Assembly (NCBI GenBank): GCA_025934395.1
Contig: JAICYC010000002.1
Location: 8,420 to 72,419 of the forward strand
Direction: 5' to 3'
Source of the DNA: Solirubrobacteraceae bacterium
GTDB lineage: Bacteria; Actinomycetota; Thermoleophilia; Solirubrobacterales; Solirubrobacteraceae
DNA: 64,000 nucleotides
Numbering within the stretch: position 1 is the first letter of the stretch; the number at the start of each line of letters is the position of its first letter. The notes under the pieces are model-generated. The model searched no databases. It worked only from the letters and a program-made list of their open reading frames with translations, and had not been told where the DNA came from. The position numbers were made by a program, and so were the translations under genes. This document shows positions 42,946 through 57,083 of the stretch, piece after piece.

Positions 42946-44451
42946 TCAGATCTGTGCGAGCTCCGCGGCGATCTCGCTCACCGCGGACTTGGCGTCCCCG
43001 AACAGCATCGAGGTCTTGGGGTCGTAGTAGAGCTCGTTTTCGATGCCCGCGAAGCCGGGGTTCATGGAGCGCTTGATCACGATCACCGAGTGGCTGTCGG
43101 AGACCTCGAGGATCGGCATCCCGTAGATCGGCGATGAGGGCGTGTTCTTGGCAGCGGGGTTGGTGACGTCGTTGGCGCCGATCACGAGCGAGACGTCGGT
43201 GCGCTGGAACTCCGGGTTCGCGTCGTCCATCTCCTTGAGCTGGTCATAGGGGACGTCCGCCTCGGCGAGCAGCACGTTCATGTGGCCGGGCATGCGCCCC
43301 GCGACCGGGTGGATCGCGTAGCTGACGTCGACCTGCCGTTTCTCGAGCTCCTTGGTGAGCTCGCGCACGGCGTGCTGGGCCTGGGCGACCGCCATCCCGT
43401 ATCCGGGCACGATCACGACGCGGCTCGCATACGCGAGTTGGATCGCCGCGTCCTGGGCGCTCGTCGATTTGACGGTCCCGGCGTGCTCGCCGGCGCCCTC
43501 GGCGCCCGCCACCGCACCGCCGCCGCCGAAGCCGCCCGCGATGATCGCGGGGATCGAGCGGTTCATCGCGACCGCCATCAGGTTCGTGAGGATCGATCCG
43601 GAGGCGCCAACGATCATGCCCGCGACGATCAGCGCGGGGTTGTTCAGCGCGATCCCGGTCGCGGCGGCGGACAGGCCCGTGAAGGCGTTCAGCAGCGAGA
43701 TCACCACGGGCATGTCGGCGCCGCCGATCGGCAGCACCACCGCGTTGCCGAGCAGCGCGGCCACGATCAGCATCCCGATGAACAGCAGTTCGGAGTGGGC
43801 ACCGGCGATCAGGTCGATCCCGGCAGCCAGCGCGAGCACGACGAGCAGGCCGTTGACCGCCTGCTGGGCGGACCCCAGCGAGATCGGGCGGCCGGGGATC
43901 ACTTCCTGGAGCTTGCCGAACGCGATGTTCGAGCCCCAGAAGGAGATCGAGCCGACGATCGCGGCGAACACGGAGAAGATGGCCACGTACGTGGGCACGG
44001 CGGCGAAGCCGACCGCGTGGCCGACCGAGATGCTTTCCCCGCCGGCGCCCACGACCTGGTGAACCGTCCGCGAGACCGTGTGTTCCCCGTAGGTGGATCC
44101 GTGGTGGCGGAACTCGACCCACGAGATCAGCGCCACCGCGCCGCCGCCGACGCCGTTGAACAGCGCCACCATCTGCGGCATCGCGGTCATCTTGACGTTG
44201 CGCGCCGCGGGTATGCCGACGGCCGTGCCGAGCGCGATCCCGAGCGCGATCAGACCCCAGTTCCCCTCGCCCCGATCGAGCAGCGTGGCCACCACCGCGA
44301 TCGCCATCCCGACCGCGGCGATGCGGTTGCCCCGCACGGCAGTGGTGGGCCCGGCGAGGCCGCGCAGGCCCTGGATGAAGAGGGCGAACGCGATGATGTA
44401 GAGGACGTAGATGAAGCTTTCGCTCTGCAGGAAGGAGGTGGCGAGGATCAC
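42946..44451 (-). CDS. pntB: NAD(P) transhydrogenase subunit beta
   Basis: 501 aa. Membrane N-terminal half and dIII domain (GYGMAVAQAQH, HPVAGRMPGHMNVLLAEA). Confidence 0.95.
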   Translation of the reverse strand: MILATSFLQSESFIYVLYIIAFALFIQGLRGLAGPTTAVRGNRIAAVGMAIAVVATLLDRGEGNWGLIALGIALGTAVGIPAARNVKMTAMPQMVALFNGVGGGAVALISWVEFRHHGSTYGEHTVSRTVHQVVGAGGESISVGHAVGFAAVPTYVAIFSVFAAIVGSISFWGSNIAFGKLQEVIPGRPISLGSAQQAVNGLLVVLALAAGIDLIAGAHSELLFIGMLIVAALLGNAVVLPIGGADMPVVISLLNAFTGLSAAATGIALNNPALIVAGMIVGASGSILTNLMAVAMNRSIPAIIAGGFGGGGAVAGAEGAGEHAGTVKSTSAQDAAIQLAYASRVVIVPGYGMAVAQAQHAVRELTKELEKRQVDVSYAIHPVAGRMPGHMNVLLAEADVPYDQLKEMDDANPEFQRTDVSLVIGANDVTNPAAKNTPSSPIYGMPILEVSDSHSVIVIKRSMNPGFAGIENELYYDPKTSMLFGDAKSAVSEIAAELAQI

Positions 44452-44774
44452 GCGTGCCCCTCCTCGTCCTCGGCCTTCGGCTTCGGCTTGGACTTGAACA
44501 TCTCGAGCATGCGGTCGGTCACGAGGAAGCCGCCGACGATGTTGATCGTCCCGAACGCCACCGCGATCACGAGCAGGATCTTCGAGAGGGCGCCGAGTTC
44601 GGCGAGCCCGAGCAGCAGCAGCCCACCGAGCAGCACGATCCCGTGGATCGCGTTCGTGCCCGACATCAGCGGCGTGTGCAGCGTGTTGGGCACCTTCGAG
44701 ATCACCACGAAGCCGATGAAGCCCGCGAGCACGAGGATCGCGAGGTTGGTGGTGAGCACGCTCGCGAGGATCAC
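44448..44774 (-). CDS. pntAB: NAD(P) transhydrogenase subunit alpha part 2 (membrane)
   Basis: Start chosen at GTG 44774 (GTGA overlap with the pntAA stop), 108 aa. LHTPLMSGTNAIHGIV. Confidence 0.85.
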   Translation of the reverse strand: MILASVLTTNLAILVLAGFIGFVVISKVPNTLHTPLMSGTNAIHGIVLLGGLLLLGLAELGALSKILLVIAVAFGTINIVGGFLVTDRMLEMFKSKPKPKAEDEEGHA

Positions 44775-45904
44775 GCCGCCGCCGCCTCGAGCGCGGCCCT
44801 CGCGCCCTCGTGGACGACCTGACCCTCGCGCACCACGCATGCCCCCTTGACGATCTCGTCCTCGAAGTCGAGCTGCATGCTGCCGTCCTCGGCCACGAAC
44901 AGCTCCAGCAGGGCGAGCACGTTGCGCGCGAACAGCTGCGAGGAGTGCTCCGCCATCGCCGCGGGAAGGTTGAGCGGCGAGACGATCTTCACGTCGTGGC
45001 GCACGACCGTCTGGCCCGGCTCGGTGAGCTCGCAGTTGCCCCCCGCCTCGCCGGCGAGGTCGACGATCACCGACCCCGGCGTCATGCCCTCGACCGCCTC
45101 CGCGGTGACGAGCCGCGGCGCCGGGCGGCCCGGCACGAGCGCGGTCGTGATCACCACGTCGAAGCCCTTGATCGCGTCGGTGAGCGCCTGCTGCTGCTGG
45201 GCGCGCTCCTGCTCGGTCAGCTCGCGTGCATAGCCGCCCTCACCAGCGGCTTCCACGCCGAGGTCGAGCCAGGCGGCGCCGAGCGACTCGACCTGCTCTG
45301 CCACCTCGGGACGCACGTCGTAGCCGGTCGTGCGCGCGCCGAGGCGCTTCGCGGTGGCGAGCGCCTGCAGGCCCGCCACCCCGACCCCCAGCACGAGCAC
45401 CTTCGCGGGCGGGATCGTGCCCGCGGCGGTCATCAGCATCGGGTAGAACCGGCCCATCTCCTCCGCGCCGAGCAGCGCCGCGCGGTAGCCGGCCACGTTG
45501 CTCTGGGAGGACAGCGCGTCCATCGACTGGGCGCGCGTGATGCGGGGGATCGCCTCCATCGCGAACGCGGTGGCGCCCGCGTCGGCGAGCGCGCGCGTGG
45601 TGGTGGAGCTCGTGAGCGGCGCCAGGAAGCCCACCAGCACCGATCCGGACCCGAGCGAGCGGATCTGCTCGGGGTCGGGCGGAGCGATCGTGACGACCAC
45701 GTCGCTGCCCCACACCCGGGCGGGGTCCGCGCTCACCTCCGCTCCCGCGTCGATGAACGCCTCGTCGGTCAACAGCGCGTCCTCGCCCGCGCCGCTCTGG
45801 ACGACGACGTCGAGGCCCTTGGCGCGCAGCTTGCCCACGACCTCCGGCACAAGCGCCACCCTGTGCTCGCCGGCGGCGGTCTCCTTCGGTACTCCGATCC
45901 TCAT
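44771..45904 (-). CDS. pntAA: NAD(P) transhydrogenase subunit alpha part 1 (alanine-dehydrogenase-like dI)
   Basis: Start chosen at ATG 45904 (MRIGVPKETAAGEHRVALVPE); an alternative ATG lies at 45931. LGVGVAGLQA Rossmann motif. Confidence 0.9.
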   Translation of the reverse strand: MRIGVPKETAAGEHRVALVPEVVGKLRAKGLDVVVQSGAGEDALLTDEAFIDAGAEVSADPARVWGSDVVVTIAPPDPEQIRSLGSGSVLVGFLAPLTSSTTTRALADAGATAFAMEAIPRITRAQSMDALSSQSNVAGYRAALLGAEEMGRFYPMLMTAAGTIPPAKVLVLGVGVAGLQALATAKRLGARTTGYDVRPEVAEQVESLGAAWLDLGVEAAGEGGYARELTEQERAQQQQALTDAIKGFDVVITTALVPGRPAPRLVTAEAVEGMTPGSVIVDLAGEAGGNCELTEPGQTVVRHDVKIVSPLNLPAAMAEHSSQLFARNVLALLELFVAEDGSMQLDFEDEIVKGACVVREGQVVHEGARAALEAAAA

Positions 45905-45969
45905 TGAGGTGCGAGAACGTATCCGATCCATGGGATGGGGCGCGGCCCGGTCTGCGAGACTGGCCTTCG

Positions 45970-46584
45970 ATGACCGTCAACCTCACCCGGATCTACACGC
46001 GCCTGGGCGACGGCGGCGAGACGCATCTGGGGGACATGAGCAGGGTGTCCAAGGTGCACCCCCGGGTGGAGGCGTACGGCACCGTTGACGAGCTGAACGC
46101 CGCGGTGGGGGTGGCGCTGTGCACGCCCGGCCTGCCCGCCCGCTTCTCCGAGTGGCTCGCGCGCGTGCAGAACGACCTGCTCGACGTGGGCGCGGACCTG
46201 TCGGTCCCGGAGCAGAGCGAGGCAGACAGGGCGAAGGAGCGCACGCGCCTGCGCGTCACGCCCGACTACACCGCGTGGCTCGAGCAGGCCTGCGACGAGG
46301 TCAACGCCACGCTCGAGCCGCTGCGCTCGTTCGTGATCCCCGGGGGCACGCCTGCTGGGGCCCAGCTGCACGTGTGCCGCACCGTCTGCCGCCGCGCGGA
46401 GCGGCGCACGATCGCGATCGGCCCGGACGCGAGCGGTGAGGCGGTGCGGTACCTGAACCGGCTCTCCGACCTGCTGTTCATCCTCAGCCGCGCGGTCAAC
46501 GCCCAGGCGGAGGGCAGCGGCTCGGCCGAGCCGCTGTGGGCGCCGGGCGCCCACGCCGACTCGGCGAAGCCCGAGGACGGCTGA
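45970..46584 (+). CDS. pduO: PduO-type ATP:cob(I)alamin adenosyltransferase
   Basis: Start at ATG 45970 (MTVNLTRIYTRLGDGGETHL), followed by EAYGTVDELNAAVG and RRAER. 204 aa. Confidence 0.85.
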   Translation: MTVNLTRIYTRLGDGGETHLGDMSRVSKVHPRVEAYGTVDELNAAVGVALCTPGLPARFSEWLARVQNDLLDVGADLSVPEQSEADRAKERTRLRVTPDYTAWLEQACDEVNATLEPLRSFVIPGGTPAGAQLHVCRTVCRRAERRTIAIGPDASGEAVRYLNRLSDLLFILSRAVNAQAEGSGSAEPLWAPGAHADSAKPEDG

Positions 46585-46595
46585 GGGCGGCGCCG

Positions 46596-47306
46596 CTAGG
46601 CCGCGGGCGCGCTCTGCGCGGGAGCGGCGTCCGGCGCGAGTCGGTCCCACAGACGCACGGCGAGCACCGCGAGCGCAGCCCACAGCGTTCCGAGCAGGTA
46701 GCCGCCGAGCACGTCGCTCGGCATGTGCCAGGCGAGCACGACCATGGAGAACCCGACCGCCGCTGCGTAGGAGAGCCCGAGCGCGATCGCAGCGCGCCGC
46801 CACGCGCCCGCGGGGGCGACGAGCACGGCGCACAGCACGAGCACGGTCGCCGCGGTGGCGTGCCCGCTGGGCCACGACGCGCGCCCGAGGTAGGTCCCGC
46901 CCACTGCGTCGTGGGGCAGCGCGAGCGCCGGCTTGAGCTTCTCCGCTGACCACGGCGCGAGCGCGAGCACCGCAGCGACCGCGAGCGCGAGCCGCGCGCG
47001 GCCCCGCGCGAGCGCGGTGAGCACGAGCGCGGTGCCCCACATCACGAACAGCAGCGGTTCGAGCAGGTGCAGCAGGAAGCTTCCGACGGATTCGATCGCG
47101 GGGCGGTTCAGGCGCGTGAGGTCGTGGAGCGCGACCGCGTCTTTCCACTTCACCGCGGCGGACTGGTCGGCTGCGAGCCACACCAGCACGAGCGCGGCGA
47201 GGCATACGACGGCCACGACGAGCGGGCGCCAGAGGCCGGGCACGGGGCGTCGCGGGTCCGGCCTACGCGGCGCGACCCGTGCAGCGGGATAGGTGTGCCC
47301 GTCCAT
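46596..47306 (-). CDS. PAP2-superfamily membrane phosphatase
   Basis: 236 aa, multi-TM. PAP2 motifs KxxxxxxRP-like, WPSGHATAA and WHMPSDVLGG. Confidence 0.8.
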   Translation of the reverse strand: MDGHTYPAARVAPRRPDPRRPVPGLWRPLVVAVVCLAALVLVWLAADQSAAVKWKDAVALHDLTRLNRPAIESVGSFLLHLLEPLLFVMWGTALVLTALARGRARLALAVAAVLALAPWSAEKLKPALALPHDAVGGTYLGRASWPSGHATAATVLVLCAVLVAPAGAWRRAAIALGLSYAAAVGFSMVVLAWHMPSDVLGGYLLGTLWAALAVLAVRLWDRLAPDAAPAQSAPAA

Positions 47307-47351: not shown

Positions 47352-49025
47352 TCACGGTGGCGCGACCGGCAGCGGCCGTTCGGTCAGGCCGGTGAGCGCC
47401 TGCGCGGTCACCCAAACGGGCGTCTGCGCGCCGGTTGCCGAGTAGCGCACGCTCCCGCCCGGGGTGAGGAGCGTCCGCAGGTAGGCGACCGGCGAGCGGC
47501 TGCCCGCGCGGGTCACGCGCGAGGCGATGCGACCTGCGGCCACGAGCCCCTGGATCGCCCACGCGGTGGACTGCGCGTTGGAAGCGCCGCCGCGCTGCTG
47601 GGGAAAGCCGCCGTCGGGACGCTGGCTGCCCCGCAGGTAGCGCACGCTCGCGCCCAGTGCAGCGGGACGCGTGCCGGCTGCTCTGAGCGCCTGCAGGACC
47701 GCGCCGGTGTCGTCGATGTCGCTGGGCCCGCCGCGCGGGCCGTAGCCGTAGCCGCCGTCGGTGTTGCGCTGGCGCGCGAGCCAGCGCGCCGCCGCTCTCA
47801 CCACGGGATCGTGCTGTGGGCGTCCCGCTGCACGCAGCGCGAGCACAGCGAACGCGGTGATGTTGGTGAGGTGGGCGAAGCTGCCGTCCGATGAGCGGGA
47901 CGCGAGCAGCCGCCCCTCCAGGTCGGCGCCGCCCGCAGCGCCCGGCAGCGTGCCTGCGGGTACGCCGGATGCGCGCAGGGCGAGCATCGTGCGCTCGATG
48001 TCGCCCGCGCCGTGGAGCGAGCCGGCTTCGGCACGCAGCGCGTCCAGCAGCGTGTGGCCTTCACGGAGGAGGCTGAGGGGGCGGCGGCCCGCGGCGGCGA
48101 GCCCGATCGCCGCCCACGCGGTGTACAGCTCGCTGCTCGGTTGGCCCACCGCCGGCCCGAACCCCCCGTCGGCGTTCTGGGCGCCGGCGAGGTAGGCGAG
48201 CTCCGGGGCCGAGGACACGCGCGCTCCCGTCGCGCCGTTGGCGCCCGCGGCCAGGCGGGCGCTGGCGCCCGCCGGGTGCGGGCCTTCGAGCAGCGCGACC
48301 GCGCCGAGCGCGATCGCGGTCGCCGCCGCGCCGGCGCCGAGCCAGCCGAGCGCCACGCTCGCGGGCGTGCGCGCCGTCGCAGCCGCAGGGACGGGCGGGG
48401 CGCGCAGGGCGGCGCCCGCCGGCACCCACGTGACGTCCATCCGCAGGCGCGCGCGCGCGAGGATCCGCGCGAGCTCGGGCCCGAAGGCGAGGCCGAACAG
48501 CAGGCTTGCGACCGTGTCGGTGATGTCGTACGGCAGGCCCTGGCCCGCAACCGCGATCAACGCGGCGCTGCTGTGGCTCGCGCCGAGCGTCCACGTGTAG
48601 ACGTTCATCACCTCCTTGGCGCCGAGCGCGGTGAGCGCGCAGCCGACCCCGAGCCCGACCCGGCCGAGGCGGCCGCGCGTGGGCCCCGCGATCGCTGCAC
48701 CGGCGAGACCGACGAGCCCCCAGGCGGCCATCTGCCACGGCGTGTAGGGACCCTGGCCGAGCATGAAGTTCGATACGAGCATCCCCAGCGCGCCCACGGT
48801 GAACCCGGGGATCGGCCCGAGCGCGTAGCCCGCGACGAACGTGATCGCGGTGATCGGCTTGACGTCGGGAAGGGCCGCGAACGCGTCGCGCCCGAGCGCG
48901 GCGAGCGCGGTCATGACGGCGACCACGGCGACCATCCGCGCGGACGGGCGCCTGCGCTCGTAGGCCAGCCAGCCCGTGCCGAGCACGACCGCGACGACCG
49001 CGAACGAGGCCAGCGGCCAGCTCAC
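47352..49025 (-). CDS. ECF-transporter S-component-like membrane module fused, via an extra TM helix, to a prenyltransferase/terpene-cyclase-like alpha/alpha-toroid repeat domain
   Basis: Start chosen at GTG 49025 (GTGA overlap with the ATPase stop), 557 aa. The N-terminal ~200 aa have 6 hydrophobic helices (KPITAITFVAGYALGPIPGFTVG, GQGPYTPWQMAAWG). Then an Ala/Pro linker and a 7th TM (VALGWLGAGAAATAIALGAVALL). Then repeats NADGGFG, SSDGSFA, NTDGGYGYG and RPDGGFP, each followed by ..A(W/F)A(I/V)..L.AAG. Confidence 0.75.
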   Translation of the reverse strand: MSWPLASFAVVAVVLGTGWLAYERRRPSARMVAVVAVMTALAALGRDAFAALPDVKPITAITFVAGYALGPIPGFTVGALGMLVSNFMLGQGPYTPWQMAAWGLVGLAGAAIAGPTRGRLGRVGLGVGCALTALGAKEVMNVYTWTLGASHSSAALIAVAGQGLPYDITDTVASLLFGLAFGPELARILARARLRMDVTWVPAGAALRAPPVPAAATARTPASVALGWLGAGAAATAIALGAVALLEGPHPAGASARLAAGANGATGARVSSAPELAYLAGAQNADGGFGPAVGQPSSELYTAWAAIGLAAAGRRPLSLLREGHTLLDALRAEAGSLHGAGDIERTMLALRASGVPAGTLPGAAGGADLEGRLLASRSSDGSFAHLTNITAFAVLALRAAGRPQHDPVVRAAARWLARQRNTDGGYGYGPRGGPSDIDDTGAVLQALRAAGTRPAALGASVRYLRGSQRPDGGFPQQRGGASNAQSTAWAIQGLVAAGRIASRVTRAGSRSPVAYLRTLLTPGGSVRYSATGAQTPVWVTAQALTGLTERPLPVAPP

Positions 49026-50671
49026 GTGGGCGCTCCGGTGATCAGCGGATCCTGCGCGCGCGGGCGGCGGCGCGCCAGCACCTCCGCGCCCTCCTCCGGC
49101 AGCAGCGCGCCGCCCGCTCCGCCGAGGATGCGCGCGGTCTCGGTGGCGAAGTACCAGCCTCCCGCGAGCAGCTCGGCGGAGCTCCCGTCGGCGATCACGC
49201 GACCGTCGGCGAGGAGCACCGCGCGTGCGGCGCATGCTGCGGCGAACTCCGGGTCGTGCGTTGCGACGATCACGGCGGTGCCGGCGCGCGCGCGGGCGCG
49301 CAGCTCCGTGGCGAGCGCGGCCTTGGCGGCGCGATCCATTCCCCGCGTGGGCTCGTCGAGCGCGAGCAGCGCGGGCTCCTCGCCGCCCGTGACGATCGCG
49401 AGCGCGAGACGCTGGCGCTCACCGCCGGAGAGGTCGCGCGGGTTGCGCTCGGCCGCCCACGCCAGCCCGGCCCGCTCGAGCGCCTGCGCGGGTGCCTCCT
49501 CGCCGGCGCGCTCGTGGACGAAGTAGTCGCCGGGATTCTGCAGCAGCAGCGCCACGCGCCCGCCGCTCTCCACGCGCCCCCGCGTCGGCGCCAGCAGGCC
49601 GGCCGCGTGACGCAGGAGCGTCGACTTGCCCGCGCCGTTGCGGCCCATCAGCGCGATCGTCTCGCCGGGGGCGACGGCGAGGTCGACGCCGCGCAGGATC
49701 GCGGGGCCGTCGCGCAGCTCGTGCCACACGCCGCGAACACGCAGCGCGAGCGGCGCGTGCCCACGGCGACCGCGCGGGCGTGTGCGCGGTGGCGCTGCGC
49801 CCGCGCCCGCGGACCCGCTAGCGGGCGTGCCGGGGTCGCCGAGCAGGCCCGCGCGGCGCAGCGCGCTGCGCGCCTGGCGCACGCCGGCGGGGACCTCGGG
49901 CACGCCGGCGAGCTCGAACAGCCTCGCAGCGGGGGTCTGCAGCGACGGCGCCGCCTCCGCTGCCCACCGCAGGAACGCGGCGGGGTCGCCGTCGCATGCC
50001 ACGCGCCCGCGCTCGAGCGCGATCACGCGGTCGGCGGCAGAGAGCACGCGCTCGAGGCGGTGCTCGGAGATCACCACCGCTATCTCCCACTCTTGGTTGA
50101 GCCGGCGCAGGAGGCCGATCAGCTCGTCGCCGGCGACGGGGTCGAGCTGGGAGGTGGGCTCGTCGAGCAGCACCACCTGCGGACGCCCCACGAGCGCCGC
50201 GCCGAGCGCGACGCGCTGCTGCTCGCCCCCGGAGAGCTCGTGGGTGCTGCGGTCGAGCAGGCCGTCGATCCCGAGCGCGAGCGCAACCTCCTCGACGCCC
50301 CGGGCGACCGTGGCGGCGCCGTGGCCGCGGCTCTCGAGTCCGAGCGCGAGCTCCGCGCGGACGGTGCTCATCACCAGCTGTGTCTCGGGATCCTGGAACA
50401 GCACCCCTGCGACCTCGCCGAGGCGCGCCGGGCCGTGCTCGCGCGTGTCGAGCCCCGCGAGCGTCACCGATCCGGCGAACGTGCCGCCGTGGAAGTGGGG
50501 AACGAGCGCACAGGCGGCGCGCAGGAGCGTGGACTTGCCGTGGCCCGAGAGCCCCGCGAGCAGACAGAACTCGCCGGGATGGATGTCGAGGTGGACGTCT
50601 TGGAGCGCAGGCTCGGCGGCGCCCGGGTAGCGATACCCGACGCCCCTGAACGACAGCAGAGGCGCGCTCAA
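49022..50671 (-). CDS. fused tandem ECF/ABC ATPase (EcfA-EcfA')
   Basis: Start chosen at TTG 50671 (TTGA overlap with the ecfT stop), 549 aa. Two Walker A motifs (GLSGHGKST, GRNGAGKST), two signatures (LSGGEQQR, LSGGERQR) and two Walker B motifs (LLDEPT, ALDEPT). Confidence 0.9.
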   Translation of the reverse strand: MSAPLLSFRGVGYRYPGAAEPALQDVHLDIHPGEFCLLAGLSGHGKSTLLRAACALVPHFHGGTFAGSVTLAGLDTREHGPARLGEVAGVLFQDPETQLVMSTVRAELALGLESRGHGAATVARGVEEVALALGIDGLLDRSTHELSGGEQQRVALGAALVGRPQVVLLDEPTSQLDPVAGDELIGLLRRLNQEWEIAVVISEHRLERVLSAADRVIALERGRVACDGDPAAFLRWAAEAAPSLQTPAARLFELAGVPEVPAGVRQARSALRRAGLLGDPGTPASGSAGAGAAPPRTRPRGRRGHAPLALRVRGVWHELRDGPAILRGVDLAVAPGETIALMGRNGAGKSTLLRHAAGLLAPTRGRVESGGRVALLLQNPGDYFVHERAGEEAPAQALERAGLAWAAERNPRDLSGGERQRLALAIVTGGEEPALLALDEPTRGMDRAAKAALATELRARARAGTAVIVATHDPEFAAACAARAVLLADGRVIADGSSAELLAGGWYFATETARILGGAGGALLPEEGAEVLARRRPRAQDPLITGAPT

Positions 50672-51577: not shown

Positions 51578-52546
51578 TCAGCCTCCCACGACGGGCAGGG
51601 GCCAGGTGCGACCGGCCGCGGCAGCGAGCGCGAAGCGCCCGCCGAGCGCGGCGGCCGTGAACGAGCGAGCTGCGAGGGCGACCCCGGCCGGGTCGGTACC
51701 GGTGACGAGCCACACGGGCGCTTCCCCTTCGCGCATGGTGGCGGCGATCAGCCCGGCGCCCGCTTCGAGCGTGCGCACGACGCGGCCGTCGGCGTCGAGC
51801 AGCACCAGCGCGTGGCCGCCCGCGGCGAAGCGGGCGTAGACGCCGCTCGCGCGCGGGCCGCCGAGCAGCGCCTGCGCAGCCGGTTCGGCCCCGACCGTCG
51901 CGAACGCTGCAACGAGCACGCGCAGGGTGTGCCCGGCAGGGCCGCCCCCTGGCGCCGAGATCGCAGCGGGCACGCCGAGCCGGTGAAGCTCGGCATCGAC
52001 CGCACGGCAGGCGCTGCCGCTCACCGATTCGCATTCGATCCGCACCGGCAGGCGCTTGCCGCCGGTGCCGTTGAGGAACGGCTCGGGGAACGATCCCACC
52101 ACCGCGGGGATGTGCTCGGTCTGGCTCCAGTCGTGCAGATCCCACCACACGTGGTCTCCGGGGTGGAGGTCTGTCTCGGCCGCGCCCTCGGACGCCTCGA
52201 CGCCGTTGACGTAGTAGAACCAGTCCGCCGGCTCGCCGTCTCGGTGTCCGCCCGCGATGCCGTCGATGCTCTGCACGAAGCCCCCCGCGAAGCGCGTCTG
52301 CACGCGCGCGTTGCGCATCAGCAGGCTCATGACCGTTTCCGACCCGGCGACCTTCGGGCTCGTGCTCCCGCGCAGCGTGCCGGTGCCGAAATCGCGTGTG
52401 ACGAGCAGCTTCACGGCGGTGGGAGCGGGGCCCGCGCCGAGGCCACACCCCGCGAGCGCCGGTGCGGCCAGCACGGCGAGCGCGACAGCTGTCGCCGCTC
52501 CGGCGCGCGCGCGCCACATGGCCGGTGTTGTGCGTCCCGGGCTCAC
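51578..52546 (-). CDS. lipoprotein with a DUF4430 (transcobalamin C-terminal-like) domain
   Basis: 322 aa, GTG start. Lipobox LAGC (AAPALAGCG). DUF4430-like block TVMSLLMRNARVQTRFAGGFVQSIDGIAGG....DWFYYVNGVEASEGAAETDLHPGDHVWW. The C-terminal ~170 aa are unassigned. Confidence 0.75.
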   Translation of the reverse strand: MSPGRTTPAMWRARAGAATAVALAVLAAPALAGCGLGAGPAPTAVKLLVTRDFGTGTLRGSTSPKVAGSETVMSLLMRNARVQTRFAGGFVQSIDGIAGGHRDGEPADWFYYVNGVEASEGAAETDLHPGDHVWWDLHDWSQTEHIPAVVGSFPEPFLNGTGGKRLPVRIECESVSGSACRAVDAELHRLGVPAAISAPGGGPAGHTLRVLVAAFATVGAEPAAQALLGGPRASGVYARFAAGGHALVLLDADGRVVRTLEAGAGLIAATMREGEAPVWLVTGTDPAGVALAARSFTAAALGGRFALAAAAGRTWPLPVVGG

Positions 52547-53292
52547 CCCACCGTGACCGCGACGGGGAACGCGGGGACCATCCCGGCGCGCGTGGCGCTC
52601 ACGCGGTAGCGGCCGGGCGTGGAGGGCGCGAGGAGCGTCGCGCGGCCGTTGGCCGCGGTGGTGGCGCGCCGCCCGCCGAGCGAGACGGTCGCGCCGGCGA
52701 CCGGCCGGCCGCGGCCTTCGTTGTCGTAGCCGTAGACCGTCGCGCTGAGCGGTCGCCCGCGACGGGCGTTCGGCGCTGACACTTCGAGCGTGCGCTCACA
52801 GCCGCCCGCGGATGCTTCGCACCAGAACCACAGCACCCGCGCACCGGGATACAGCAGGCGCCCGTTGCCCTTCGAGCCGGTCGGATCGCCCGCGCCGGTG
52901 CTGCCCGCTGCACCCCCCACCTTGTACTCCCAGCCGTTCTGCCCGCGATTGCGCTCGCCGCCGAGCGTGTACACGAACAGCTCGGCGGCGCTCGCGGTCG
53001 AGGCACCACAGTGGCCGTAGTCGCGGAGGGCGAACGCGGGGCCGCCGGTGGCGCGCAGGTCGGCGAGGACCGCGAGCGGCGTGGCTGCGGCGACCGAGCA
53101 GCTGCGCCCCGACACGCTGACGGTGGCCGCCGACGCGGCGATCGTGCGGGCGGGCGCGAAGATCGCACCGCCGCGGCCGACCACCATCACCTGCACGGCG
53201 GGCACCGAGGCGGCGGGGGCAGGCGCGGGCACGAGCACGAGCACGCCCGCAAGCGCCGCGATCGTCCCCGCACAGACCTTTCGGGCGGTCAT
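52543..53292 (-). CDS. exported DUF4430-domain protein with a C-terminal Ig-like/CarboxypepD_reg-like domain
   Basis: 249 aa with a signal peptide. Block TPLAVLADLRATGGPAFALRDYG......FVYTLGGERNRGQNGWEYKVGG...LLYPGARVLWFW. C-terminal GATVSLGGRRATTAANGRATLLAPSTPGRYRVSATRAG. Confidence 0.7.
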   Translation of the reverse strand: MTARKVCAGTIAALAGVLVLVPAPAPAASVPAVQVMVVGRGGAIFAPARTIAASAATVSVSGRSCSVAAATPLAVLADLRATGGPAFALRDYGHCGASTASAAELFVYTLGGERNRGQNGWEYKVGGAAGSTGAGDPTGSKGNGRLLYPGARVLWFWCEASAGGCERTLEVSAPNARRGRPLSATVYGYDNEGRGRPVAGATVSLGGRRATTAANGRATLLAPSTPGRYRVSATRAGMVPAFPVAVTVG

Positions 53293-53296
53293 CGGA

Positions 53297-54484
53297 TTAC
53301 CGGACGTAGAACACGACGCGGGAGGTGCCGCGCGCGAGCGTCGTGTGGTTCCCGGCGCTGTCGCCCGCCGTGACGTCGAGCACGTAGCGGCCGGGCTTCA
53401 GCGCGGAGGGCAGCAGGTAGGAGAAGGTGCCGCTGCTCGCCACCGGGAAAGTGCTGCCGCGCCCGCAGCGGATGCGCACGAAGCGGGCGCTGGTCGCATC
53501 GAAGGTCCAGCAGCGGCCTCGATGGCTGCGCCGCAGCTCGAGGCTCACCGAGGTGACCGGGCTGTGCGTGAGGATCGTGCCCGCGAGCAGGCGCGGCGCC
53601 CCGCCACGGCTGTACACGCGCCCGTTGGCGGGGCCGCTCACGTTCGCCACGAGCGCATAGGGCCCGGTGTACGCCTTGCCCGATGCCCCCCCGAGCACAC
53701 CGTTCGCGGTGCCGGAACCCGTGCGGGCGCCCGAGCCCCCCGCCGCGGTGCCGCAGTTGCCGTCGCTGCCGTTGTGGACGCAGACCGTGAACGGACGCGA
53801 CGGCGCATCGCCCGCCCGGGTCACGCGCAGCGTGACCGTGCCGGTGCCGGTGAGCGTGAGCGTCGCCACGCCGCTCGCGGCGGTGGACGCGCTCGCACCC
53901 CCGCCCGACACGGTCGCCCCCGCGATCGGGGCGGGCGTTCCCTGACCCGCTTCCGCGAACGCTTCCGGCGCGGTGTGCACCGCGCTCACCGCAACGTTGA
54001 ACGGCGAGCCCGCCTGGACCACCGCGGGCGCTTCGGTGACGACGAGCGGCAGCACCGTCGGGGCGAAGAACGGTTCGGGCTCGTGGTCGGCGACCATCAG
54101 CACTTCGTCGCCTTCGCTGAGCATGTCGGTGCAGATCCCCCCGCCCCATTTGTAGTTGACCCACTCCGCCCACGTGTCCGATTCGTGCGCGAATTCGTGC
54201 GTCTCGCCGAGCAGCGTCTGGGTGAAGTCGCCGCCCGCGCCGAACGCCTCGCCGTGGTCCCAGTTGCCGGCCGCCGCGAGGTTGATCGCAGCAGCGACGC
54301 TGTTCGCGGGACAGCCGCTGACGGGCTCGGGTTCATTGAGCGTCACGGTCGTGGCGGGCAGCAGCGTCGCCGCTTCGCCCTCGACGCGAACCGTCACGGT
54401 CGGACCGGCGAGGGCGCTGGACGCGAACAGCGCGAGCACGACGACAGCGACGCACAGCGCCAGAGAGGAGGTCCTTGCAGTCAT
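53297..54484 (-). CDS. exported protein: N-terminal DUF4430-like domain plus two Ig-like beta-sandwich regions
   Basis: Start at ATG 54484 (MTARTSSLALCVAVVVLALFASSALA is a signal peptide), 395 aa. Block VTVRVEGEAATLL...NSVAAAINLA...GDFTQTLLGE...TWAEWVNYKWGGGICTDMLSEGDEVLMV. First gene after the riboswitch. Confidence 0.7.
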   Translation of the reverse strand: MTARTSSLALCVAVVVLALFASSALAGPTVTVRVEGEAATLLPATTVTLNEPEPVSGCPANSVAAAINLAAAGNWDHGEAFGAGGDFTQTLLGETHEFAHESDTWAEWVNYKWGGGICTDMLSEGDEVLMVADHEPEPFFAPTVLPLVVTEAPAVVQAGSPFNVAVSAVHTAPEAFAEAGQGTPAPIAGATVSGGGASASTAASGVATLTLTGTGTVTLRVTRAGDAPSRPFTVCVHNGSDGNCGTAAGGSGARTGSGTANGVLGGASGKAYTGPYALVANVSGPANGRVYSRGGAPRLLAGTILTHSPVTSVSLELRRSHRGRCWTFDATSARFVRIRCGRGSTFPVASSGTFSYLLPSALKPGRYVLDVTAGDSAGNHTTLARGTSRVVFYVR

Positions 54485-54522
54485 GTGAGCCAACCCCTTT
54501 CCACGAGGGTCTTGTGGGCTTG

Positions 54523-54686
54523 GGTCGGAGGCAGGTCTCCTGGCTCCCGGGCCTACCCTCCGCGCCTTCCCGCTCCGTCGTGGACGGATCAGTGGCCGCG
54601 CACCTGCGGTGCGCATGCGTCTGGCATCCCCGGTCACAGTGGCGGGTCCGCGCCGGATTTGCACCGGCTTCCCTACGCCACCGACC
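54523..54686 (-). promoter_or_regulatory. cobalamin (adenosylcobalamin) riboswitch aptamer
   Basis: Minus strand reads GGTCGG-TGGCGTAGGGAAGCCGGTGCAAATCCGGCGCGGACCCGCCACTGTGACCGGGGA...GCGGCCACTGATCC...GAGCGGGAAGGCGCGG...GGGAGCCAGGAGACCTGCCT-CCGACC. It contains the conserved GGGAA/GGTG.AA.TCC/CCCGC.ACTGT core, GCCACTG, GGGAAGGC and the B12 box AGCCAGGAGACCTGCC. P1 is GGTCGG/CCGACC. It ends 38 nt before the ATG at 54484. Confidence 0.92.
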
Positions 54687-54702
54687 TAGAACTGGCGGGA
54701 TT

Positions 54703-55074
54703 CTACCCGGCGGGCTCGCGCGACGACGCTCGGCGAGCGCCAGGAGAGCGCGTAGCGGACGCCTCCACGGTCGCCTTCAGGCGCGCGAGTCGCGTGTCCC
54801 ACGTGTGCTGCGTCTCGGTCAGCCAGCTCGCCGCCGGCACGAGCGCCCGCTCGCGCAGCCGGTAGCGGACCTCGCGGCCGGGGCCCGGCGCGCGTTCGAT
54901 CAGGCCCGCGCCGTCGAGGGTCGCGAGATGCTTGGCGACCGCCTGGCGGGAGATGGGCAGCGCGGCGGTGAGCGCCGGCACGCTGGTCGTGCCGTCGCGC
55001 AGGAGAGCCTGCACCATCGTCCGCCGCGTGGGGTCCGCGAGCGCAGCGAACACCGGCCCGATCGGATCGCTCAA
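54703..55074 (-). CDS. ArsR/SmtB-family transcriptional regulator
   Basis: Start chosen at TTG 55074 (TTGA overlap with the upstream stop), 123 aa. FAALADPTRRTMVQALLRDGTTSVPALTAALPISRQAVAKHLATLDGAGLI is a wHTH. Confidence 0.8.
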   Translation of the reverse strand: MSDPIGPVFAALADPTRRTMVQALLRDGTTSVPALTAALPISRQAVAKHLATLDGAGLIERAPGPGREVRYRLRERALVPAASWLTETQHTWDTRLARLKATVEASATRSPGARRASSREPAG

Positions 55075-55367
55075 GCTGCCACCATCGCGAACGACGCCGA
55101 CAGCGACGCGAGCGGCAGTGCGGGCTCGGTCTCGGTGACGATCACGCGCGATCCCGCGGGCACCGAAACGATCCGGAAGTCCACCGTGGAGGTCACGCCG
55201 TCGTCGTCCCGCCAATGCCATACGAGACGGTGGTGGGGCTCGAAGCTCTCGATCTCGACCGCAGGCGCGTCGTCGCCGAGCCACCGGCCTCTCCCCTCCT
55301 CCGTCACGAGCGCATCCCACACGTCCTCGGGCGGCGCGTCGATGTCCACTTCGCGAACCACACCCAT
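55071..55367 (-). CDS. SRPBCC (AHSA1/START-like) domain protein
   Basis: MGVVREVDIDAPPEDVWDAL... Start moved to the second ATG (55367) because AAGGAG directly abuts the first ATG (55373) and is 6 nt from the second. Confidence 0.7.
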   Translation of the reverse strand: MGVVREVDIDAPPEDVWDALVTEEGRGRWLGDDAPAVEIESFEPHHRLVWHWRDDDGVTSTVDFRIVSVPAGSRVIVTETEPALPLASLSASFAMVAA

Positions 55368-55380
55368 ATTCATCTCCTTT

Positions 55381-55441: not shown

Positions 55442-56080
55442 ATGCCCCTGATTCCGATGGTCGTCGAGCAGAGCGCGCGCGGCGAGCGCTCGTTCGACAT
55501 CTACTCCCGCCTGCTGAACGAGCGGATCGTGTTCATCGGCACCCCCGTCGACGACCAGGTCGCCAACCTCGTCGTCGCGCAGCTGCTGCACCTCGAGAGC
55601 GAGGACCCCGAGAAGGACGTCTCCCTGTACATCAACTCGCCCGGTGGAGTCGTGTACTCGGGGCTCGCGATCTACGACACCATGCAGTTCATCAAGCCCG
55701 ACGTGCAGACGATCTGCTTCGGCGTCGCAATGAGCATGGGGTCGCTGCTGCTCGCCGGAGGCGCCGCAGGCAAGCGCGCCGCGCTGCCCAACAGCCGCAT
55801 CCTCATCCACCAGCCCTCAGGCGGCTTCGAGGGCCAGGCCGCCGATATCGAGATCCACGCGCGCGAGACGCTCGAGCTGCGCCGCCACATCGACGAGATC
55901 TACGCGCGCCACACCGGGCAGTCGCTCGAACGCGTTCACGACGACATGGATCGTGACCGCTACTTCACCGCCGAGCAGGCGCGGGAGTACGGGCTGGTCG
56001 ATCGCGTGATCAGCGCGCACGAGGTCGTGCGGACGGCTACGGGGTTCAGGCCCGCACCCGCGACGGCCTCGGTGCAGTAG
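55442..56080 (+). CDS. clpP: ATP-dependent Clp protease proteolytic subunit
   Basis: 212 aa. [18 protein letters not shown], catalytic Ser in GVAMSMGS, His in ILIHQPSGG, Asp in [17 protein letters not shown] upstream. Confidence 0.95.
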
Positions 56081-56215: not shown

Positions 56216-56554
56216 ATGAGCCTTGCCTTTGCCGAAGAGGCGATCCACATCCGTGACACGGGACATCTGTCGGACCGGGAGATCGCGCGTGCCACCGGCG
56301 CCGCTCCGAGCACCGTGCGCGAATGGCTCTCGCGGCGCAGCTCACCGAGCGGCGCACGGGCCGAGCGGGTCGCCGAGCTGTCATCGATCGTCGAACGGCT
56401 CGCGCTGGTTCTGCGGCCGAGCTACATCCCGGTGTGGATGAACAAGCCGATCCCCGCGCTCGATGACGACAAGCCGATCGACCGGATCGCCCAGGGCGAC
56501 TACCGAGCGGTTGCCCAACTCATCTCGGGCCTAGAGGACCCGGGCGCAACCTGA
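56216..56554 (+). CDS. Xre-like/DUF2384 antitoxin (MbcA/ParS type)
   Basis: 112 aa. HTH DREIARATGAAPSTVREWL, then a C-terminal DUF2384-like block WMNKPIPALDDDKPIDRI. Immediately precedes a RES-domain gene. Confidence 0.8.
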   Translation: MSLAFAEEAIHIRDTGHLSDREIARATGAAPSTVREWLSRRSSPSGARAERVAELSSIVERLALVLRPSYIPVWMNKPIPALDDDKPIDRIAQGDYRAVAQLISGLEDPGAT

Positions 56555-56555
56555 C

Positions 56556-57083
56556 GTGGCGCTCGACCTGCCCGCGATCCATGTTCGCGGGCGGCGTTGG
56601 GTCAGACACGCGGTGCCTGGCGCCGCAGCGCTGCCGGTGCGGGAACCGCCACCCGACAACCGCTGGCAGCGAGGAGCGGCCGTGGACGCCCTGTACCTCG
56701 CGGACAGCGAGGCAACGCTGTGGGCCGAGTGGTACCGCCACCTCGCCGAGCGTGCTGTTCCACCGCTCGCGCAGATGCCGCGTGCGCCGTGGACCTGGCT
56801 CGTCGACGTCGAGGTGGCCGACCTCTCCACGGCTGAGCGCCTCTCCACCGCATCGCTGATGCCACCCACGCCGGGGCAAGCGAGCTGGCGGCCCTATCAG
56901 CGCGTCGGAGAGCGGCTTGCGCGCGAGGGCTGGATCGGGCTCCTCGCACCGAGCGCTGCTCACCCGGCCGGGCGGGTCCTCTGTCTGTTTCGGGAGGGCA
57001 GCACAGTGCGCGGAGCGTCGCCAGTGGGCCGTCCGCGCACGATCAAAGCCCCTCCCGCGCCGCCGAGGGGACTCCGCACCTGA
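56556..57083 (+). CDS. RES-domain toxin (MbcT/ParT type NAD+-targeting enzyme family)
   Basis: 175 aa, GTG start 1 nt after the antitoxin stop. R..E..S contexts DNRWQRG, YLADSEATLWAEW and LLAPSAAHP. Confidence 0.8.
   Translation: MALDLPAIHVRGRRWVRHAVPGAAALPVREPPPDNRWQRGAAVDALYLADSEATLWAEWYRHLAERAVPPLAQMPRAPWTWLVDVEVADLSTAERLSTASLMPPTPGQASWRPYQRVGERLAREGWIGLLAPSAAHPAGRVLCLFREGSTVRGASPVGRPRTIKAPPAPPRGLRT

Follow-up and report, generated by a model that had tools for sequence, protein, structure and literature searches.

Three exported proteins with DUF4430-type domains encoded in a predicted cobalamin-riboswitch operon of Solirubrobacteraceae

Three consecutive open reading frames (ORFs), here called A, B and C, lie on the minus strand of a 64,000-nucleotide stretch of contig JAICYC010000002.1 (the window), a DNA of ~72-78% G+C that was assigned to Solirubrobacteraceae (Actinomycetota) through the database names of identical or near-identical proteins. 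Their products all carry homologous domains of the DUF4430 type, known as the C-terminal domain of transcobalamin-family proteins (PMC4350170). The domain of C is canonical, that of B is borderline, and that of A founds a divergent subfamily outside the Pfam model. A and B are paralogues that share an architecture in which the DUF4430-type domain is combined with an immunoglobulin-like (Ig-like) domain, and C represents another architecture. The three genes are predicted to be the first of a six-gene, translationally coupled operon that encodes an energy-coupling factor (ECF) transporter and lies behind a cobalamin riboswitch. Their products are probably the extracytoplasmic corrinoid-capture proteins of a dedicated ECF importer for vitamin B12, repressed through the riboswitch when B12 is plentiful.

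DUF4430-type domains and architectures of A, B and C

The three ORFs and their parts are listed below with their lengths in amino acids (aa) and the evidence for each part.

53297..54484, minus strand: ORF A, 395 aa, predicted secreted protein, no anchor motif
54407..54484, minus strand: ORF A signal peptide, residues 1-26 (MTARTSSLALCVAVVVLALFASSALA, followed by GP); hydrophobic segment 8-26
54074..54406, minus strand: ORF A N-terminal domain (N-domain), residues 27-137, divergent DUF4430/transcobalamin-beta-like; model, Foldseek, profiles
53774..54049, minus strand: ORF A middle domain, residues 146-237, CarboxypepD_reg-like/Ig-like; PF13620, hhalign, model
53300..53653, minus strand: ORF A C-terminal domain, residues 278-395, Big_13-like, Ig-like; PF19077, model
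52543..53292, minus strand: ORF B, 249 aa, predicted secreted protein
52783..53208, minus strand: ORF B DUF4430-type domain, residues 29-170; Pfam matches of orthologues, hhalign
52546..52782, minus strand: ORF B CarboxypepD_reg-like beta-sandwich, residues 171-249; PF13620, hhalign
51578..52546, minus strand: ORF C, 322 aa from GTG 52546 or 313 aa from ATG 52519
52445..52519, minus strand: ORF C predicted lipoprotein signal peptide, lipobox L22-A23-G24-C25 (MWRARAGAATAVALAVLAAPALAG, followed by C); pattern [LVI][ASTVI][GAS]C
52133..52339, minus strand: ORF C DUF4430 domain, residues 61-129 (313-aa numbering); PF14478
51581..52114, minus strand: ORF C C-terminal domain, residues 136-313, ~178 aa; conservation among orthologues

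An earlier reading of this DNA, made from the sequence only, had proposed three consecutive ORFs that each encode an N-terminal export signal followed by a DUF4430-type domain. Its coordinates for the ORFs were exact, each protein has a single N-terminal hydrophobic segment, and the three domains could be linked by profiles. In protein C, PF14478, the Pfam model of DUF4430 (gathering score 23.8 bits), matched directly with 51.8-51.9 bits (E~1e-13) over profile positions 2-71 of 72, and it was matched by 39 of 39 C orthologues. Domains of this kind belong to CATH 2.170.130.30, the transcobalamin-like beta domain.

A and B were recovered through their orthologues, their distant relatives and family profiles. 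For B, 29 of the 38 orthologues, which are 54-78% identical to it, match PF14478 at E<=1 (best E=1.1e-5); one of these (P0236) scores 26.2 bits, above the cut-off, and its match lies on LFVYSLGG...GWEYKV. Comparison of the B and C N-domains with hhalign gave E=1.5e-4 on the core F-V-x-S-[IL]-x-G...W-x-Y-x-V...G-[DA]-x-[VI]-[LW]-W. The residues that are invariant in the B N-domain include C65, C95, C158, C165 and the W121-x-Y123-K-V motif, and the Asp of the G-D-x-V-W motif is replaced by Ala.

None of 39 close orthologues of A matches PF14478. A profile built on A residues 27-137 was searched against 1.84 billion representative proteins and gave 338 hits at E<=1e-3. Among distant relatives (26-47% identical), 58 of 83 have a PF14478 match at E<=1, the lowest E being 1.4e-8; in the ten that were inspected the match lies inside the region covered by the A profile, and in five of these it exceeds the gathering score. 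Shallow family profiles (effective number of sequences, Neff, ~2) gave no match of A with C in hhalign, and E=0.007 for the N-domains of A and B taken alone. As A and C could not be joined in this way, a more diverse A profile was needed. The N-domain profile of higher diversity (Neff ~4) aligned with the C family at 93% probability (E=3.5e-7) and with the B family at 79% probability (E=1.6e-5, 105 columns).

The fold of the A N-domain was assessed from structural models. With the full-length A model, the Foldseek matches were Ig/FN3 adhesins and nothing informative was returned on the N-domain, which was therefore modelled alone. The AlphaFold model of residues 27-137 has a mean predicted local distance difference test score (pLDDT) of 81.6, a predicted template modelling score (pTM) of 0.77 and the topology bb-a-bbb-b. 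Its 17 best matches in the PDB are haptocorrin (4kki), transcobalamins, the isolated transcobalamin beta domain (5np4, 5no0) and 3u7z, with Foldseek probabilities of 0.66-1.0. The last of these superimposes with template modelling (TM) scores of 0.59/0.66 and a root mean square deviation of 4.2 Å. Intrinsic factor appears at rank 25, followed by generic beta-grasp proteins of the ubiquitin-like type. Structural resemblance to the transcobalamin beta domain was seen for A, the one to which the fold evidence applies; searches of PDB sequences with the B and C family profiles returned nothing significant. 3u7z and the beta domains of transcobalamin, haptocorrin and intrinsic factor form one CATH superfamily, in which a beta-hairpin contacts cobalamin (PMC13385337).

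Invariant residues of the A N-domain include C58, C118, W75-D76, W105 and W108, and H77 is nearly invariant. Residues 73-78 form the motif G-N-W-D-H-G, invariant or nearly so, in a loop after the helix of the DUF4430-like domain; that its His could be a cobalt ligand is speculation. The A family comprises 987 proteins at E<=1e-3, from Solirubrobacteraceae and all named hypothetical protein; a better annotation, as a divergent family of DUF4430 proteins, is now available for them.

The three domains are old relatives. When the N-domains were compared by BLASTP, neither A and C nor A and B matched significantly, and B and C matched at E=8e-4; between the whole proteins, the only matches were the Ig-like domain of A and B and a marginal one on the core of B and C. 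Recent tandem duplication was rejected, in agreement with the divergence noted from the sequence alone: the divergence is deep, each family is conserved in its own right and the architectures differ.

A consists of a signal peptide, the divergent DUF4430 domain, a CarboxypepD_reg-like beta-sandwich, a disordered Gly/Ser/Ala-rich linker and a Big_13-like beta-sandwich. B has the same order up to the CarboxypepD_reg-like domain, with a long Gly-rich insert in its DUF4430-type domain, and has no counterpart of the Big_13-like domain. The two beta-sandwich regions ascribed to A and the single one ascribed to B were thus borne out, with pLDDT values of ~85-97 over the two in A. PF13620 (CarboxypepD_reg) matches B residues 194-247 with E=4.5e-6 and 27.4 bits, below the cut-off of 32.3; it matches the A middle domain at E=0.03 in the protein of the window and is found in 29 of 39 orthologues. 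The two domains are clearly related to each other (hhalign 96.9%, E=2e-10; BLASTP E=1e-7), and that of A was modelled with pLDDT 88-97. The C-terminal domain of A is all-beta (pLDDT 84-95) and is preceded by a linker modelled at low confidence; it matches PF19077 at E=3.7e-4 with 21.4 bits, below the cut-off, and 34 of 39 orthologues also match this model. In some distant relatives of the A/B type the Ig-like domain (for example residues 166-219 of P0505) matches DUF4198 (30.9 bits, below the cut-off) and DUF7382.

C consists of a lipoprotein signal, the canonical DUF4430 domain and a C-terminal domain that is strongly conserved among orthologues (VVGSFPEPFLNG..GKRLPVR.EC, the C163/C171 pair, GVYARF and VTGTD). 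It bears no similarity to the extensions of A or B in hhalign. An identity as TruB_C was considered and set aside, the matches being below threshold, 30 residues long, confined to 8 of 39 orthologues and judged uninformative.

Each protein has one hydrophobic segment, always N-terminal, and no further transmembrane segment. Protein A begins with MTAR and 19 hydrophobic residues and continues with ALA, then GP, a site of the signal-peptidase-I type that is conserved in the family (A24, A26 and P28 are conserved or invariant). The hydrophobic segment 8-26 has a mean Kyte-Doolittle value of 2.65 and was modelled as a single helix (residues 7-25). Protein B begins with MTARK and a hydrophobic core followed by the Pro/Ala-rich c-region PAPAPAAS, where the cleavage site is less clear. 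Both show the charged n-region, the h-region and the small-x-small site of Sec/signal-peptidase-I substrates, and both lack a C-terminal anchor. Protein C begins with MWRAR, so that its lipobox follows two Arg and a hydrophobic core (MWRARAGAATAVALAVLAAPA-LAGC); G24 and C25 of the lipobox are invariant in 39 orthologues. The lipoprotein with an LAGC lipobox and an unassigned C-terminal domain that had been read from the sequence was thereby recovered, the domain measuring ~178 aa. The cysteines of the mature proteins are all invariant and even in number: six in A (C58, C118, C235, C244, C325, C340), four in B (C65, C95, C158, C165) and, besides the lipobox Cys, two in C (C163, C171). Such cysteines fit with disulfide-bonded extracytoplasmic proteins. 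Combined, these features predict that A and B are secreted and that C is a lipoprotein.

The operon and its relatives

The riboswitch, the transporter genes that follow A, B and C, and the adjoining genes are the following.

54513..54697, minus strand: cobalamin riboswitch aptamer, operon leader; Rfam RF00174
50668..51573, minus strand: ECF T component (CbiQ family); PF02361, 70.8 bits
49022..50671, minus strand: fused EcfA-EcfA' ATPase, probable TTG start 50671; ABC_tran twice
47352..49025, minus strand: S component (putatively CbrT-like) with extra helix and alpha/alpha-toroid, 557 aa, GTG start 49025
46596..47306, minus strand: PAP2-family phosphatase; weak NCBIfam matches of the PAP2 type, synteny
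45904..46584, plus strand: PduO-type ATP:cob(I)alamin adenosyltransferase, convergent with the operon; TIGR00636

The riboswitch matches RF00174 over the full model (1-189) with 77.4 bits (E=2.4e-17; gathering score 31.5). Its 3' end lies 29 nucleotides (nt) before the ATG of ORF A, and the ribosome-binding site GGAAAGGGG is found between them. The stop of ORF A is 4 nt ahead of the ORF B ATG, the stop of ORF B overlaps the GTG of ORF C (GTGA), the stop of ORF C is 4 nt ahead of the EcfT ATG, the T stop overlaps the TTG of the ATPase gene (TTGA), and the ATPase stop overlaps the GTG of the gene for the 557-aa S/toroid protein (GTGA). Starts and stops that overlap or lie 4 nt apart across six genes point to translational coupling and, as the riboswitch is directly upstream, A, B and C are predicted to be the first three genes of a B12-regulated operon. 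A start of the S/toroid ORF at 49235 was rejected as an over-extension, GTG 49025 being the start that overlaps the ATPase stop.

The T component, two ATPase domains and the S component are encoded together, as in a group I (dedicated) ECF transporter. The EcfA-A' protein matches Pfam ABC_tran twice (154 bits), and NCBIfam ECF_ATPase_1 and ECF_ATPase_2 at ~250 bits. In the 557-aa protein, the S component (residues ~1-200) is followed by an extra transmembrane helix (~222-246) and then by the toroid. Its Pfam matches are ECF-ribofla_trS (31 bits, cut-off 26.7) and SQHop_cyclase_C (45 bits), and the NCBIfam model 'SCO2321 family membrane protein' is matched in part, at 99.8 bits, which is below its cut-off. 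The S component has a weak but specific phmmer match over residues 28-114 to 6fnp_A, the S component of ECF-CbrT (E=1.4e-3, 21 bits), and the toroid matches squalene-cyclase-type domains of the PDB at E=1e-14. S components normally have both termini inside the cell (N-in/C-in). With an extra helix following such an S component, the toroid would be extracytoplasmic, and from this topology we infer that it lies outside the cell.

The PAP2 gene begins 46 nt downstream of the S/toroid gene and may be a seventh member of the operon; a PAP2 gene follows the S gene on the same strand in almost all related loci, and PAP2 is annotated in locus L001. The convergent PduO gene matches NCBIfam TIGR00636 (PduO_Nterm) with 175 bits against a cut-off of 108, and its adjacency is kept in related loci, also in the distant loci L082 and L083.

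Relatives of ORF A were sought by a pattern scan with one genome per species and were found in 148 species; 80 loci were examined, all but one of them labelled Solirubrobacterales or Solirubrobacteraceae. A riboswitch homologue is present just upstream of the A gene in 81/81 loci (nhmmer E 1e-18 to 1e-29). The gene order A-(B)-C-T-AA'-S/toroid-PAP2, with a convergent PduO gene near, is conserved in ~80 species. A and C are constant in the 79 distinct loci in which both were called, and B is present in 27 of these; where it is missing, the C reading frame begins right after A. B is patchy across both close and distant A clades, with scores of ~400 bits in both. This pattern, patchy in both clades at about equal scores, suggests that B is an old accessory gene that would have been lost repeatedly.

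A-B fusions occur in two lineages (P0375, 637 aa, and P0383, 611 aa; fusion locus L083, 1889-3724), and in the fusions a short basic linker stands where the B part would have its signal peptide. A distant metagenomic locus (L082) encodes two DUF4430 proteins, one of 231 aa with an Ig domain and one of 310 aa, together with CbiQ, AA' and an S/toroid protein, beside PduO. From this locus and the patchiness of B, the general design consists of two DUF4430 proteins, one of the Ig type and one of the C type, per ECF/toroid module, and the window holds a three-protein elaboration of this two-protein design.

Other genes of the surroundings were recorded as well. On the upstream side of the operon there is a small AHSA1/SRPBCC-like ORF (55071-55373, minus strand). 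A ClpP protease gene (55442-56080, plus strand; PF00574, 276 bits) lies between the promoter side of the operon and a toxin-antitoxin pair (56216-57083, plus strand). The pair comprises an Xre/MbcA/ParS-type antitoxin (56216-56554; PF09722, 23.2 bits, just below the cut-off, and HTH_3) and a RES-domain toxin (56556-57083; PF08808, 38 bits). Adjoining PduO are transhydrogenase genes of the pntA/pntB type (AlaDH/PNT, from inspection of the translations; 42946-45931, minus strand), a neighbourhood also seen in loci L001 and L082.

Corrinoid capture and its alternatives

The corrinoid context of the locus is strongly supported by the riboswitch, the PduO gene and the putatively CbrT-like S component, and it is firmer than the sequence-only reading, which had raised the link to corrinoids, could know: a riboswitch homologue is found upstream of the A gene in every one of the 81 related loci, the importer is of the ECF type with a putatively CbrT-like S component and a toroid, and PduO adjoins it. 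We infer corrinoid binding itself from this context. In the mechanism that we propose, a kind of split transcobalamin, the DUF4430 domain would bind a corrinoid outside the cell, and the loaded domain would dock onto the toroid above the S component, as transcobalamin's alpha and beta domains assemble around cobalamin. The corrinoid would then be passed to the S component, imported at the expense of ATP hydrolysis and adenosylated by PduO. Lipoprotein C, which is membrane-tethered and always present, is for these reasons the likeliest direct partner of the toroid and would act close to the membrane. A, together with the optional and sometimes fused B, would act further out as released or wall-level scavengers or as a heteromer, with the Ig-like domains as spacers or docking modules. 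Two properties of known proteins bear on this scheme: human transcobalamin alpha and beta domains expressed separately assemble only with cobalamin, the beta domain alone retaining cobalamin (PMC5599065), and ECF-CbrT is a proven B12 importer (PMC5997447).

The interpretation offered from the sequence, in which the three proteins are functionally specialised for different corrinoids, for a relay from the wall to the membrane or for heteromeric assembly, is partly supported. The A-B fusions hint that the two proteins cooperate as a heteromer. Since they share their architecture and are fused in two lineages, joint action of A and B is favoured over three independent specialists.

Several points weigh against this reading as a whole. 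Direct hmmscan of the window proteins against Pfam found PF14478 in C alone and not in A or B, B giving no match at E<=1; taken literally, this is the outcome that the sequence-only reading had named as speaking against itself, and both proteins were recovered only by way of orthologues, distant relatives and profiles. The Foldseek scores of the A N-domain are weak (E 4e-3 to 0.1, none <=1e-3; TM 0.4-0.66). The DUF4430-type fold of A is nevertheless convincing because the list of hits is specific and the chain of HMM matches leads to the same domain, despite the modest scores. Signal peptides and lipobox were assigned by visual inspection of the sequences. The toroid matches SQHop_cyclase and Prenyltrans, both of the terpene-cyclase type, and not PF01122, and the C-terminal domain of C has no Pfam or NCBIfam match above threshold and no significant match in a profile search of the PDB. 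To our knowledge, ligand binding has been shown for no bacterial DUF4430 protein; in our literature search few papers mentioned bacterial DUF4430 and none was found that characterises it, nor was a paper found that links cobalamin riboswitches, ECF transporters and prenyltransferase-like domains. The individual roles of A, B and C, the relay and any differences in ligand preference are conjecture.

Among the alternatives, the one that survives best is that C alone binds the ligand, A and B being envelope or scaffold proteins with degenerate DUF4430 domains, in which the Ig-like domains serve to shield the complex or to keep it in the wall. The lack of direct Pfam matches in A and B agrees with such a role, as do the Ala in place of the motif Asp in B, the adhesin-like character of the Ig domains and the absence of B from two thirds of the loci. 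The N-domains are however the most conserved parts of A and B, where Trp, Cys and Asp residues are invariant and a His is nearly so, and A is present in all loci as the first gene after the riboswitch, with the fold retained. We consider this explanation unlikely, and capture by all three proteins remains our preferred reading.

A second alternative concerns the ligand, the system importing heme or another non-corrinoid tetrapyrrole scavenged by the DUF4430 proteins. It draws on the only relative studied genetically, in Lactobacillus sakei, which was linked to heme and not to B12, a fact that counts against corrinoid capture: deletion of the homologous operon lowered the uptake of heme, and in docking the heme came to lie between the alpha-like protein and the beta-like one (bioRxiv 10.1101/864751). 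For the present operon, the cobalamin riboswitch here and in 81/81 related loci, the conserved PduO gene beside it, the weak resemblance of the S component to CbrT and the fact that no heme-related gene was seen in the operon make import of heme very unlikely.

Cobalt uptake for B12 synthesis, with the DUF4430 proteins as extracytoplasmic metal-binding accessories, would account for the riboswitch, under which cobalt transporters are often found. The T component belongs to the CbiQ family, and the PDB entry 3u7z bears the description 'putative metal binding protein'. The operon contains no CbiM or CbiN, however, and its S component matches vitamin-type S components and, weakly, CbrT; the pairing of a toroid with DUF4430 domains mirrors the two halves of transcobalamin, and the neighbouring PduO acts on complete corrinoids. 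A cobalt transporter thus seems scarcely probable. Finally, the idea that the three-fold resemblance is due to chance, A and B being unrelated beta-rich proteins that share a short motif, could appeal to the non-significant pairwise BLASTP and to the failure of hhalign with the shallow A and C profiles, but was rejected as barely credible in the face of transitive HMM links that are in register, the 93% and 79% hhalign probabilities with the diverse profile, specific fold matches in the PDB and conserved synteny.

A bolder version of corrinoid capture can be put forward, which we regard as doubtful. The locus would be the bacterial equivalent, in modular form, of the complete set of animal B12 carriers, in which one toroid fixed to the transporter is served in turn by three beta-domain proteins (two released and one membrane-tethered), perhaps differing in corrinoid selectivity, with a relay from A/B to C and on to the toroid and S component by ligand-dependent assembly. 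ECF transporters are textbook ABC-type importers without a substrate-binding protein. If the proposal is true, extracytoplasmic binding proteins can serve a class of transporters whose definition includes the lack of a soluble one, and the two domains that make up transcobalamin, intrinsic factor and haptocorrin existed in bacteria as separate interacting parts. The locus makes testable whether bacteria capture corrinoids through a split version of the animal B12-carrier fold. The answer would bear on the competition of monoderm soil bacteria for scarce corrinoids, on the origin of the animal B12 carriers and on the annotation of DUF4430 genes that adjoin ECF modules in other bacteria.

Comparison with known systems

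The extracytoplasmic capture of B12 for a transporter is familiar from the BtuF and BtuG/BtuH proteins of Gram-negative bacteria, of which BtuG and BtuH are surface lipoproteins. Their folds (class III periplasmic binding protein, beta-propeller) are unrelated to DUF4430, and they supply BtuCD and BtuB rather than an ECF transporter.

The closest described system is Lactobacillus sakei lsa1836-1840 (Verplaetse et al., bioRxiv 10.1101/864751), with which the locus was compared through the description in that paper. In both cases one operon encodes a dedicated ECF module (S, fused A-A' and T), an exported transcobalamin-beta-like protein and a toroid protein, and an extracellular binding pair is proposed to feed the S component. 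The L. sakei operon, however, has one beta-like protein and a free alpha-like (prenyltransferase-like) protein, whereas three beta-like proteins of two architectures are found here and the toroid is fused to S. The former was assigned to heme and belongs to Bacillota; the present locus, in Actinomycetota, has a cobalamin riboswitch and a PduO neighbour.

ECF-CbrT of Lactobacillus delbrueckii (PDB 6fnp; PMC5997447) shares the ECF type of importer, and its S component is specific for B12. It works without an extracytoplasmic binding protein and, unlike the protein described here, the CbrT S component lacks a toroid. Among structures of matching size, the best neighbour of the A N-domain is RUMGNA_00854 from Ruminococcus gnavus (PDB 3u7z), a stand-alone bacterial DUF4430 protein; it is a single-domain structural-genomics target and, unlike A, has neither an Ig-like nor a C-terminal extension.

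Transcobalamin, intrinsic factor and haptocorrin (PDB 2bb5, 2pmv, 4kki) share the beta-domain fold of DUF4430 and gave the top matches of A. As in these carriers, there is an alpha/alpha-toroid partner domain, and three diverged paralogues occur in one organism. The eukaryotic carriers hold alpha and beta domains in one soluble chain and are taken up by receptor-mediated endocytosis, whereas here separate polypeptides carry the two domains, one polypeptide being integral to the membrane, and delivery to an ECF transporter is proposed. A toroid domain is missing from A, B and C alike and resides on the S-component protein, the PF01122 model (Cobalamin_bind) was not detected, and sequence identity to the carriers is 11-15%. 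The locus is not assigned to the transcobalamin/intrinsic factor/haptocorrin family because no single chain has both domains and PF01122 is not matched; by analogy with these carriers, the system may nevertheless work like a transcobalamin that is split between an exported beta domain and a toroid held at the membrane.

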